From Escherichia coli (GTDB lineage Bacteria > Pseudomonadota > Gammaproteobacteria > Enterobacterales > Enterobacteriaceae), in assembly GCF_016026235.1 (NCBI RefSeq), contig NZ_CP065613.1: a stretch of 64,000 bases of DNA. The stretch is one strand, 5' to 3'. Both the position numbers and the translations under genes were made by a program. The notes under the pieces were generated by a model, which ran no database searches, had not been told where the DNA came from, and worked only from the letters and a program-made list of their open reading frames with translations. Below are positions 51,616-60,008 of the stretch, one piece after another. Position 1 is the stretch's first letter; every line of letters begins with the position of its first letter.

Positions 51616-52405
51616 TAATACTAGTGGGACTTCACAACCCGAGTCGCAAGTATGTGTAGTACCGCAAAAAATTACAAATAAATTTAAAATAATGATGAGT
51701 AAGGCTTGTAAAGCACAGAAAATGGTTTTATTGAAAAGAGCAGATGATATTATGTCATGGGAGGGGGAACAACAACGAGATTTTATTAAAGTTTTTGGCC
51801 TTAAAGGCGAGGACATTATAAAAATCAGAAAGGTTGGGGAAGATACTGGGAAACGAATGCAAGCGAGACTATTCATAATGGATGGCATCAGACGAATAAT
51901 GACGATTGCAAATGGTTTGACGATCGAAAGCTATAAAGATTATACGAACTGCAATGAATTTGCTGCTTTTATTAGTCCACATCTTGATCCTCCTTACATT
52001 GTAAATATCGGAGCGCATTTTGAATACAGACATGGTATAAAACAGTCGGTTACAGGTAGAGACTCTCATGTAAGTACACTTTGCCATGAAATGTCCCATA
52101 TATTTTGGTATTGGGGTGACAATCAAAAAGGTGGTATGTGGACTCAGGATTATACGGGTATTAATAAGTTCGCAACAAGTAATAAGGATGAAGTTAGCTA
52201 TGAGAAACATGTTTCAGTGGCTAATGATCTGGTTACATTGCGTAAAGATCAGTTATTTGAGAATGCATATAATGTTGAAAGATATTTTTATATAAAATTA
52301 AATGATGAAGATATTGAAGCTCAAGATGAGAATATGTTAGCAAAAAAAGTAGAGGATAAAATAAAAGAGATAGAAAAATGTTTTGATGAGTTGATGGGGA
52401 AATAA
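51602..52405 (+). CDS. VgrG-coupled HExxH protein, candidate zinc-metallopeptidase effector
   Basis: ATG 51602 overlaps the vgrG stop by 14 nt; 267 aa; HExxH in hydrophobic context (TLCHEMSHIFWYW) followed by WTQDYTG; low-GC cassette. Confidence 0.55.
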   Translation: MAGNNNTSGTSQPESQVCVVPQKITNKFKIMMSKACKAQKMVLLKRADDIMSWEGEQQRDFIKVFGLKGEDIIKIRKVGEDTGKRMQARLFIMDGIRRIMTIANGLTIESYKDYTNCNEFAAFISPHLDPPYIVNIGAHFEYRHGIKQSVTGRDSHVSTLCHEMSHIFWYWGDNQKGGMWTQDYTGINKFATSNKDEVSYEKHVSVANDLVTLRKDQLFENAYNVERYFYIKLNDEDIEAQDENMLAKKVEDKIKEIEKCFDELMGK

Positions 52406-52468
52406 GATGAAGAGGTTGGCTTTCTATAATCTAAATTATGTTGTACTGATGGTTTTTTTCTTTGTTTT

Positions 52469-53155
52469 TTGCCATTATCTATTGCAATTGCAATAGATAA
52501 TGAGAATCTTTTTGTAAAAAAATACAGATTCGGTTTTGAACGAAGAAGTGACAATGGGAAACCAATTATTTATCTTAGCCATAATTTAGCGCCAGAGGAA
52601 AATATAAGTAATGAATTAACAAATGATGTTGTTGTTAAATTGGTGGTTAAGCCACATGCTGAAAATATTTTAGCTACTATAACTTTTTATAACAGTAGTA
52701 CTAAATCGTATTTTCTCCCCAGAATATATTATCCAAAGAACTTCCAAAAAGGAAATGGAGATGTATTTGATGCTTTGTGTGATGACGAATTCTTGATTAC
52801 ATCAGGAAATATTAGCTTAGACTATCTAGGAGGCTTTTGTCCCTTTGAGCTTGATTTGAATTTGAGCCGATGGGTGGAAATTACGGCAGGTAAAAAAATA
52901 TCTTTTGATGTAAAATTGAATGATATGCATTCATTTCTCCCCAGTTTAAATAATTATCATATAAAAACATTAAACTACAAACTTGTTAGGAGAAAATGGT
53001 TTGTATTAAAATCAATTAATGAAACATTCCTCTCTATTTTGATGAAAAGATACTCATGTAATGAATATGATTTTAGAGCTATATCATTTAGTGGAGAGGG
53101 ATGTGATAATTATGAATTTGATAAAAATACGTTTTTTTTGTTAATCAAATATTAG
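52469..53155 (+). CDS. hypothetical protein, candidate cognate immunity/partner of the HExxH protein
   Basis: 228 aa ORF (TTG start in ORF track) directly downstream in a very AT-rich cassette; an upstream ATG at 52407 encodes a hydrophobic leader in a different frame. Confidence 0.4.
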   Translation: MPLSIAIAIDNENLFVKKYRFGFERRSDNGKPIIYLSHNLAPEENISNELTNDVVVKLVVKPHAENILATITFYNSSTKSYFLPRIYYPKNFQKGNGDVFDALCDDEFLITSGNISLDYLGGFCPFELDLNLSRWVEITAGKKISFDVKLNDMHSFLPSLNNYHIKTLNYKLVRRKWFVLKSINETFLSILMKRYSCNEYDFRAISFSGEGCDNYEFDKNTFFLLIKY

Positions 53156-53329
53156 ATAAAGATGATGAGCAACATTCTGTTCATATTAGGTCTAATGAAT
53201 TTTCCATCAATATCGATGGAAGCTTGGTAAAGCAACCTTATTGATTAAAATGTATCGCAGGTTTTATTTTCTGTAATGCTGGTGCATGTGCGTAAATATT
53301 TCTTAAGAGCCGGAAACACCTCTTCCGCC

Positions 53330-53732
53330 TTTATCGACGATAAACCTACCGCCAGAACCGGTGATGCCATTGACTGCGGTGGCGTGGTTAAAGGTGGCGG
53401 GCGATGTGGTGCTGGAGAGCAGCAGCCGGATAAGCCTGAAGGTGGGCGGTTCGTTTGTGGTCATCCATTCAGGGGGCGTGGACATCGTCGGGCCGAAAAT
53501 CAATCTCAATAGCGGCGGTAGTCCGGGAACGCCGGTGCCGACGCTGCAACCGGCGGTTCTGAAAGCGCTGGCAGATGATAAAAGTTTAGCGGCTGAGCAA
53601 AATGATAGTAATGCATCGTCCGATCAGAATGATAACAACGATGAGGGTGAGGAAGCGCCAGAAAAATCGGTGTGTAAGGAGTGCCTGAAAAGGGCGCAAG
53701 AAGCCGCCGCCGTTTTTGCGCCTCGTGGATAA
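53330..53732 (+). pseudogene. orphan vgrG 3' remnant
   Basis: 53394..53576 is a diverged repeat of vgrG 51109..51281 (...LESSSRISLKVGGSF(V/I)VI..GGVDI.GPKINLN.GGS.GTPV...) with a different C-terminal tail; no N-terminal vgrG body. Confidence 0.75.
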
Positions 53733-54509: not shown

Positions 54510-54822
54510 TATTGTGGTGATGTACGGGGAGATTTATCTGTTTAAAAGTCCGTAGCTGTTAATATCAAGAGATAATCGTGAAATAAACGGAAAATCAAGC
54601 TCGACATGTAATGGTAGTATCCATCATGTTGCATTTGTGTTCGATCGTAATGTCAGTTCACTTGGCTGCAATATATTTTGCGTAATATCATCAATGCTCT
54701 GTCGATATTCCAATGTGTGACAATCGAAAGATATGCATTTTATTTGCTTCTTTGTCAAAACTTTATTGTCGTAGAAACAATACCCATCAATTAAAATCTC
54801 TCAAAGTAAAAGAACCAGCAAC

Positions 54823-55377
54823 ATGTCCAGCAAAATAAGGAAAAGTATCAGTATGAGAGCGATTTTCAAATGTTATTCTCTAATGATTTTATTTGCAGTA
54901 TCAGGCTGTTCAATGGCAAAAAATAGCGGTGATTACACTGCTGTGGATATTAATGGGATAAATCATACGGATAAGGATATAAATTATATACACATCAATG
55001 GTTACGGCGGACCAAATATTGGCCCATTCGGAGACGGTGGAAGATATTGTTGCGTTATGCTGCCAGATAAGTGGCATTCTGGATTAAAAGCCCGAGTTGA
55101 GTGGGAGGTTGATCCAAATACAGCTCCTCTGCCTCCAGGCTATAAGGACAGGGAGAAATTTGAAGCATGGAAGAAAGTTGCGCTAAACAGTTTTAGAAAA
55201 TATTCAACAATTGTTGATATCCCGGAATATGATGCTGAGCTTTGTGGCCTGACCGTTCATTTTCTAACGTGTAATCAGATAAAAGTGACAACCGTCTGCC
55301 AGAAATATGGTACACCAAATTATCCTATCAAAGAACCCCGCGAGATGAAGGAACCAGCAACATGTCCAGCAAAATAA
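54823..55377 (+). CDS. lipoprotein, candidate Tle-family immunity protein (paralog 1)
   Basis: 184 aa with lipobox (FAVSGC); about 60% identical to the next ORF; conserved C-terminus ...IKEPREMKEPATCPAK. Confidence 0.6.
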   Translation: MSSKIRKSISMRAIFKCYSLMILFAVSGCSMAKNSGDYTAVDINGINHTDKDINYIHINGYGGPNIGPFGDGGRYCCVMLPDKWHSGLKARVEWEVDPNTAPLPPGYKDREKFEAWKKVALNSFRKYSTIVDIPEYDAELCGLTVHFLTCNQIKVTTVCQKYGTPNYPIKEPREMKEPATCPAK

Positions 55378-55904
55378 GAAATGGAATGAATATAACAAAA
55401 GTAGTTAAAGGCTGTCTGGTATTAATTTTGATGGTGATTTCGGGTTGCTCAGCAGCTAATTACGACGATTATACTGCAGGTGATCTCCGGGCAATAAATC
55501 ATATTAAAGGTATCAGTATTAATTGGTTCACCGTAAATGGTTATCGGGTCCATGGTTTGGGCGGTGGATATTGCTGCATAATGTTACCAGAGAAGTGGCA
55601 TTCTGGATTAAAAGCCCGGATCGAGTGGGAAGTAGACCCGAACCCCCTTGAACCTATTGCAATGAAAAAAGAAGGTTTTGGCTATGAAGAAGATGCTTAT
55701 GCTAAACATGCTGCAAATTATCAAAAATATAAAGTAATTGTTGATATCCCGGAATACGGCGCTGAACGTTGTGGCCTGACCGTTCATTTTCTGCCGTGTA
55801 ATCAGATTAAAGTGACAACCGTCTGCGAGGGCTATGGCACACCGAATTATCCTATCAAAGAACCCCGCGAGATGAAGGAACCTGCAACATGTCCAGCAAA
55901 ATAA
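55362..55904 (+). CDS. lipoprotein, candidate Tle-family immunity protein (paralog 2)
   Basis: 180 aa with lipobox (MVISGC); start overlaps stop of paralog 1 within the repeated motif ACATGTCCAGCAAAATAAG. Confidence 0.6.
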   Translation: MSSKIRNGMNITKVVKGCLVLILMVISGCSAANYDDYTAGDLRAINHIKGISINWFTVNGYRVHGLGGGYCCIMLPEKWHSGLKARIEWEVDPNPLEPIAMKKEGFGYEEDAYAKHAANYQKYKVIVDIPEYGAERCGLTVHFLPCNQIKVTTVCEGYGTPNYPIKEPREMKEPATCPAK

Positions 55905-59798: not shown

Positions 59799-60008
59799 AT
59801 GAATAAACGGATTGAATGTGTTATGTTAAAAATGAGTTTATACGTAATAATATTGTTATTTCCCTTTCAGATTAGTGCAGCCATTACTAGCAAGGAAAGT
59901 GAGGTTGTTTCACCATTATTAATGGATGTTAATTCTTCACTAACAATGGAAAATATTTCTGAATTATCCACATCATCGGAACCATCGCAACAGGGGGTAT
60001 TTCCCTGA
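59799..60008 (+). pseudogene. 5' part of a secreted-protein gene disrupted by an IS10-like insertion
   Basis: Signal-peptide-like N-terminus (MLKMSLYVIILLFPFQISAA); reading frame runs into the IS inverted repeat and resumes at 61299 (…QQGVFP | VICTRLHPGS…). Confidence 0.55.

Follow-up and report, generated by a model that had tools for sequence, protein, structure and literature searches.

The stretch of DNA considered here, hereafter the window, is a type VI secretion system (T6SS) locus of 64,000 nucleotides (nt) from Escherichia coli (assembly GCF_016026235.1, contig NZ_CP065613.1). Directly downstream of a gene for an M35-like zinc metallopeptidase, it has a short hydrophobic leader open reading frame (ORF) followed by an ORF of 228 codons in a different frame. 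Very probably, positions 52407..53244 are a single broken gene, a T6SS immunity gene frameshifted by slippage at two homopolymers, and a double frameshift of this kind makes the TTG-initiated ORF of 228 amino acids (aa) an annotation artefact of a pseudogene. As a phenomenon this is an ordinary pseudogene, yet it is annotated in databases as a normal gene. The intact product of 279 aa, found in other E. coli, would be a Sec-exported periplasmic protein. Its gene would follow, probably with translational coupling, the gene for an M35-like effector carried on the VgrG spike, and the protein would bind and block that protease in the periplasm. Replication slippage would have taken one T from each of the two longest homopolymers of the gene; the loss at tract 1 would have detached the signal peptide, and the loss at tract 2 would have removed the conserved C-terminal strands, presumably leaving the window allele without function.

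A sequence-only reading of this region had described a hydrophobic leader out of frame with the 228-aa ORF at a T7 run, and proposed a frameshifted gene for a secreted protein or lipoprotein, or a slippage-prone site. The arrangement is as described: ATG 52407 starts a hydrophobic ORF of 29 codons (MKRLAFYNLNYVVLMVFFFVFCHYLLQLQ) ending at TAG 52494..52496, the T7 run at 52453..52459 lies between leader and main body, and the 228-aa ORF (52469..53155) is in another frame (offset 2, equivalent to -1, relative to the leader ORF), with TTG as first codon and no ATG. From the preceding stop in its frame (52424..52426) to TTG 52469 there is no ATG, GTG or TTG. If the T7 run is given one more T, leader and main ORF join in a continuous protein (MKRLAFYNLNYVVLMVFFLCFLPLSIAIAIDNEN). 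When homologous cassettes are compared, as that reading had suggested, tract 1 is T8, the leader is in frame and the fused form is the annotated gene in nine of twelve related complete genomes; the juxtaposition of leader and body is not due to chance. A second lesion had been overlooked: a T8 run at 53132..53139 lies five codons ahead of the stop of the 228-aa ORF, and with one extra T the frame runs 34 codons further, to TGA 53242..53244. Another T run, T6 at 52465..52470, had also gone unmentioned. Compared with the intact gene, the window lacks one T per tract, T8 becoming T7 at codon 17/18 and T9 becoming T8 at codon 244. ATG 52407 lies 1 nt past the stop codon of the M35-like gene (TAA, 52403..52405). 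Shine-Dalgarno pairing is -5.5 kcal/mol for ATG 52407 and -2.2 kcal/mol, equal to the local background, for TTG 52469, while opening the initiation region costs 8.6 and 15.6 kcal/mol, respectively. The immunity gene begins at ATG 52407; TTG 52469 is not credible as an independent start.

Among 5,426 complete E. coli genomes, 12 carry the cassette at an identity of at least 99.6%. Aligned with these twelve, the window shows indels within the gene at the two T tracts and nowhere else. Given as tract 1/tract 2, the lengths are T7/T8 in the window, FDAARGOS_943 and 2018-05-2CC (RefSeq product of 228 aa from TTG), T8/T8 in four genomes (249 aa from ATG), T8/T9 in five genomes (279 aa from ATG), and T9/T9 in GPT24-02 (258 aa from TTG); with T9/T8, five combinations have been seen. 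Over 4.5 kb in six genomes, lineages differ by 49-214 single-nucleotide polymorphisms (SNPs), yet the sole indels are three T-tract columns. At least four SNP backgrounds include T7 alleles (the window type, 2018-05-2CC, and loci L030 and L032), and tract state differs between sequences with zero SNP differences over 1.9 kb. Within clones tract state is constant, as in three Swiss isolates that are all T8/T9 and five assemblies identical to the window. Since T7, T8 and T9 are found among otherwise near-identical sequences, tract 1 is prone to slippage as a mutational process, and both tracts are recurrent indel hotspots. In E. coli genes UUUUUUU and AAAAAAA are under-represented, for which transcriptional slippage or a high indel rate has been suggested (PMC4066793). 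The gene has in common with other homopolymer pseudogenes of E. coli the gain or loss of one base in A/T runs of 7-9, recurrent across backgrounds, and fragments annotated as shorter genes; unlike ordinary cases, it has two independently varying tracts within 840 nt and at least five length combinations.

The polarity of the change is given by outgroups, although few are available: 5.8 billion proteins were searched, and there were four clusters at 90% identity in total. A Salmonella Moero protein with 52% identity has the in-frame leader "...LILLFFNKALA/NES" and a metagenomic protein with 47% identity has "...SFFFFLNETIA/RES"; both keep the C-terminal tail "...SNEVxVKIxGSKxxxPY". In the DNA of the Salmonella gene, the two homologous sites hold runs of T8 and T7, both in frame. 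The in-frame leaders and C-terminal tails of both outgroups indicate that the 279-aa T8/T9 form is ancestral and that the window lost one T per tract. On this comparison, the intact gene encodes 279 aa and the window allele is doubly frameshifted; the proposal of a frameshifted secreted-protein gene thus gains support from close alleles as well as from homologues at 47-52% identity. The features of the gene and its cassette are collected in Table 1.

Table 1. Coordinates of the frameshifted putative immunity gene and of the cassette that contains it
Feature	Position	Strand	Remarks
hcp	48477..48995		
vgrG, 799 aa, spike gene bearing the cassette	49216..51615	+	
M35-like (HEMSH) metallopeptidase effector gene, 267 aa, intact	51602..52405	+	34% GC
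Detached signal-peptide ORF, 29 codons and TAG	52407..52496	+	T8 genomes are annotated from this ATG
Poly-T tract 1, T7 here	52453..52459	+	T8 in intact alleles, T9 in others; leader lost at codon 17/18
T6 run	52465..52470	+	Constant length in all compared sequences; TTG 52469 overlaps its end
228-aa ORF, WP_052239153 in RefSeq	52469..53155	+	Central body, without leader and C-terminal 35 residues
Perfect 30-nt palindrome, CATTATCTATTGCAA/TTGCAATAGATAATG	52473..52502	+	13-bp hairpin, -15.7 kcal/mol
Poly-T tract 2, T8 here	53132..53139	+	T9 in intact form; the lost T replaces residues 245-279 with LLIKY-stop
Out-of-frame C-terminal tail, VNQILDKDDEQHSVHIRSNEFSINIDGSLVKQPY and TGA	53140..53244	+	Most conserved motif of the family; predicted with confidence score of about 95
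3' remnant of older vgrG	53361..53732	+	Right-hand recombination scar of the M35/immunity cassette

An exhaustive profile search for the protein family gave 84 cluster representatives, mostly of 270-310 aa, and a 47-sequence alignment was made. Several cysteines are almost invariant in this alignment, and the clearest motif is C-terminal, "IRSNQVxVxIDGxxxxSxY". Independently starting, leaderless homologues are not the pattern of the family; a strongly hydrophobic N-terminal segment is present in 42 of the 47 members. No model in Pfam or NCBIfam matches the family, nor is there one for PA0261/Tpi1, and a profile search of a word-indexed protein database brought no additions. By rule, the intact protein is predicted to have a Sec (signal peptidase I) signal peptide, with an MKR n-region, a 12-residue Kyte-Doolittle maximum of 2.96, and A27-I28-A29. 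The lipobox [LVI][ASTVI][GAS]C is not found at the end of the signal peptide, where the intact form reads FFLC and the leader frame FVFC, and a lipobox-like match occurs in only 3 of the 47 family members; the lipoprotein option of the sequence-only reading was accordingly rejected. The export signal belongs to the intact allele and to the family, the leader of the window's own allele being out of frame.

Of six loci at which the neighbouring gene could be checked, four (L014, L017, L023, and L025) have directly 5' of the family member a gene for an HExxH homologue of the window M35-like protein, with 27-64% identity, and one of them also has a VgrG-DUF2345 gene. A diverged M35 paralogue is present in 518 other complete E. 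coli genomes, where the gene downstream belongs to the same immunity family (hhalign E = 1e-38). The window likewise has an HExxH effector gene beside vgrG and the syntenic gene directly downstream. From this position, the family-wide synteny and the tested pairs of other bacteria, the target gene is presumed to be the immunity partner of the adjacent M35-like effector. E. coli NRG 857C (L017, 3455..5055) carries the diverged PAAR-vgrG-M35-immunity module found in the 518 complete genomes, with vgrG annotated as frameshifted. Its immunity gene has 28% GC and seven A/T runs of 7-8 bases, and for that reason may be similarly frameshift-prone.

Two tested pairs are comparable. The M35 protein of E. 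coli PAR, encoded in a locus with the order VgrG/DUF2345/M35/immunity, is toxic, and the product of the next gene downstream neutralises it (PMC10673891). The toxicity of VgrG2b of Pseudomonas aeruginosa is confined to the periplasm; the matching immunity protein, PA0261, is located there as well, depends on DsbA, and no longer protects once its signal peptide is removed (PMC6899460). The window pair shares with the VgrG2b-PA0261 pair (Tpe/Tpi-type) an HExxH effector linked to VgrG, an immunity gene directly downstream, and an immunity protein with conserved cysteines and an export signal. The pairs differ in that the window effector has a separate gene for 267 aa whereas the VgrG2b metallopeptidase is the C-terminal domain of VgrG, and in that the window immunity gene is doubly frameshifted. 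Enterobacterial homologues of PA0261 were predicted to be lipoproteins by Wood et al., whereas the window family has Sec-type leaders without lipoboxes.

AlphaFold with the 47 sequences gave a model with a mean predicted local distance difference test (pLDDT) score of 83.8; an earlier prediction from four sequences had a pLDDT of 40 and was unusable. The model has a leader helix, a beta-sandwich at approximately residues 75-194, further helices, and two end strands at 258-261 and 266-271 with a pLDDT of about 95. Both end strands, with part of the helix before them, are lost through the tract-2 frameshift at residue 244. The predicted beta-sandwich resembles the pro-form of AsaP1 (PDB 2x3a/b/c), an M35 aspzincin protease of Aeromonas salmonicida, and the intracellular proteinase inhibitor of Bacillus subtilis (3isy). 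This double likeness, to an M35 pro-form and to a protease inhibitor, suggests how the toxin might be blocked: the immunity protein may act as an inhibitor-like domain. Going by the fold likeness, the unit in common would be a beta-sandwich of the inhibitor type, and the immunity protein would block the M35 active site likewise, although in this case as a separate protein acting in trans. The immunity protein differs from AsaP1 and 3isy by additional helices and a C-terminal hairpin, and no sequence similarity to either is detectable.

Several points weigh against a simple loss of immunity. The C-terminally truncated 249-aa allele is the commonest form (at least 120 contigs, compared with 96 for the intact 279-aa form, 49 for 228 aa and 30 for 258 aa), and it also occurs beside an intact M35-like gene in a genome whose T6SS core is annotated as intact in the stretch examined; the 249-aa form may therefore keep function, or immunity may be dispensable. 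That the immunity gene decays and the effector does not is contrary to what is usually seen. Slippage of the ribosome or of RNA polymerase at the T7 run may also provide low-level rescue. With regard to mechanism, a profile-against-PDB sequence search found nothing significant, so the AsaP1 likeness is at fold level only, and the match is presumably to the propeptide of AsaP1 and not to its catalytic domain, as its all-beta nature suggests.

Only about one third of the counted carrier contigs have an intact immunity gene, while the listed M35 proteins are nearly all full length (the exact M35 allele of the window is on 48 contigs and the exact 228-aa product on 49); an intact toxin with so few intact immunity genes runs counter to expectation and raises the question of whether truncated forms still protect. 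The direct value of the result lies in annotation. RefSeq names one gene as "hypothetical protein" of 228, 249, 279, or 258/259 aa (WP_052239153, WP_088129800, WP_105458168, and WP_335267381 are the protein identifiers of the tract-length forms) and never flags the frameshift, in a family that has no Pfam or NCBIfam model and that accompanies an M35-type T6SS toxin in about 10% of complete E. coli genomes. An immunity family with a protease-inhibitor-like fold, frequent immunity decay beside an intact toxin, and the palindrome described below are side results of modest specialist interest.

The palindrome at 52473..52502 lies within the codons P-L-S-I-A-I-A-I-D-N-E, around the predicted signal-peptidase site AIA/I. 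It is the longest perfect hairpin of the 64-kb window; simulations gave 0.1 per window for stems of at least 11. All E. coli alleles have it, in-frame ones included, and it is absent from Salmonella and other homologue DNA, relative to which E. coli has a 4-residue insertion at this site. Everted ATTATC...GATAAT hexamers lie inside it, and it may have arisen by a template-switch event. A terminator scan flags the hairpin, but the T run is 6 nt off the stem and the site is inside a coding region, which speaks against an intrinsic terminator.

With this hairpin as an aid, the arrangement could be functional if the frames were joined, in a useful share of the product, by -1 ribosomal frameshifting on T_TTT_TTC or by RNA polymerase slippage on U7. 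The shift needed is exactly -1, the sequence T_TTT_TTC (52454..52460) is correctly phased in the leader frame as a slippery X_XXY_YYZ heptamer, and a slip on it gives the same protein as the T8 allele. U_UU.U_UU.C is in the class of efficient heptamers in E. coli, with more than 0.1% frameshifting without stimulators (PMC4066793). The very stable hairpin is just downstream of the T tracts, and the T7/T8 allele is maintained in a lineage of about 49 assemblies. However, the in-frame T8 form is both the majority and the outgroup state, which makes the frameshift a derived state that is not conserved; the leader is in frame in the nine genomes mentioned above and in divergent homologues with complete N-termini. 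The hairpin begins 12 nt past the heptamer and 3 nt past the T6 tetramer, whereas stimulators are usually 5-8 nt downstream; moreover, in-frame alleles have it just as frameshifted ones do, and homologues lack it. For the full protein, a further independent -1 shift would be required at tract 2, downstream of which there is no single strong hairpin. Recoding is thus an unlikely explanation of the two frames.

Phase variation, in which both poly-T tracts would be contingency switches for the export and the C-terminus of the immunity protein, flipping at high frequency in a population, is similarly improbable. One tract is in the region encoding the signal peptide, as in classical phase-variable surface genes, and lengths are polymorphic between strains (T7, T8, and T9 at codons 16-18, and T8 and T9 at tract 2), with combinations that differ, sometimes on identical SNP haplotypes. 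T7-T8 runs are present in the leaders of six of the eight family genes with DNA available, but a back-translation simulation with Phe-rich leaders and TTT-biased codons gave an expectation of 4.3 of eight, near the observed value, and a family-wide designed switch at the leader tract was rejected on this basis. The clonal sets are uniform, both the five window-identical assemblies and the three Swiss isolates, and the contig counts of 48 and 49 show that the M35 effector and the 228-aa allele travel together. In E. coli with functional mismatch repair, T runs of 7-9 have a much lower mutation rate than genuine contingency loci. There is also no apparent selective logic in turning immunity off while the toxin is kept. 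A combined proposal would have the tracts and the palindrome form a regulatory device, in which hairpin-promoted slippage tunes or heritably switches immunity while the toxin stays on. The chance of this is equally slim; if true, such a device would let a lineage modulate T6SS self or kin recognition.

Compared with these proposals, the remaining two are weaker still. A true T8/T9 genome in which both frameshifts were made by homopolymer under-calling would be consistent with two one-base deficits in long homopolymers, the typical signature of some sequencing platforms. However, T7/T8 recurs in five independent assemblies, which match the window without a difference over 3,087 bp. FDAARGOS_943 has the same allele as well, although insertions of IS21, IS600, and IS1 set it apart from the window; neither of the two indels between these genomes is in a long homopolymer. 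Together with the 49 contigs that have the 228-aa product, these assemblies make a sequencing or assembly error very unlikely. The annotated arrangement, a hydrophobic leader peptide and a separate 228-aa cytoplasmic protein started from TTG 52469, perhaps by re-initiation, has the RefSeq coding sequence in its favour and a leader ORF that ends 25 nt past the TTG, whose translation would unwind the hairpin and end close to that codon. It can hardly be credited, however: Shine-Dalgarno pairing at the TTG is not above background, the initiation region is occluded, no homologue has a leader peptide with an independent 228-aa protein, and the leaderless product would lack the conserved C-terminus and, by analogy with PA0261 without its signal peptide, be in the wrong compartment.

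The frameshifted immunity gene is part of a cassette inserted in the T6SS locus, where the gene order is hcp, vgrG, M35-like gene, target gene, 3' vgrG remnant, tla1, two tli1a, and tle1. The start of the M35-like gene overlaps the end of vgrG, stop included, by 14 nt, and vgrG positions 51101..51293 have 78% identity to positions 53386..53578 in the remnant. The GC content is 34% in the M35-like gene and 29% in the target gene, compared with 51% in the whole window. The low GC content and the remnant indicate that an AT-rich effector/immunity cassette recombined into an older vgrG.

RefSeq names the HEMSH gene peptidase M35. Its product matches Pfam PF14521 with 19.9 bits (E = 0.001), below the cut-off of 30, and has no NCBIfam match and no significant PDB sequence match. 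The sequence WTQDYTG is identical in the M35-like proteins of the window, L014 and L017, and is WTQDYTA in L016; it is partly similar to GTxDxxYG, the motif that supplies a downstream Asp ligand, although it presumably sits further from HExxH than is usual for M35 enzymes. A metagenome contig (DRR526040_6559; L016, 3100..4754) has an M35 gene broken across several frames and an intact immunity gene of 272 aa, a direction of decay opposite to that of the window.

A connection between loss of immunity and inactivation of the T6SS was considered and rejected; no association can be claimed. The three complete-genome T7 sequences examined in detail each have independent lesions. In the window, tssF (T6SS baseplate; 43487..45329, minus strand) has an extra A at 43892 compared with FDAARGOS_943 and a stop after about 480 of 613 codons, and the T6SS of this strain is probably inactive. 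FDAARGOS_943, the nearest relative, has IS21 in tssC, a lesion independent of the tssF frameshift. In 2018-05-2CC (L006), vgrG has IS600 and the M35 gene has a one-T deletion in a T5 run, equivalent to window position 52285; the whole module is decaying. Genomes with intact immunity genes are damaged too, A30 having a stop in tssH and PapRG-04-4 having no tss core genes in the 20 kb upstream that was examined. JX21CE8 and GPT24-02, with broken immunity genes, have no annotated T6SS lesions within the stretch examined.

Two further observations concern other parts of the window. The two tli1a genes and tle1 (54713..55904) each begin (MSSKI...) inside the 3' end of the ORF before it, whose product ends in ...KEPATCPAK, and the same junction remnant is also found ahead of the first tli1a; this repeated boundary sequence could be a driver of immunity-gene duplication and loss. 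The window also has, and FDAARGOS_943 lacks, a segment of about 1.3 kb (60004..61298) with a minus-strand ORF of 413 aa (60025..61266); this segment is probably an insertion sequence.
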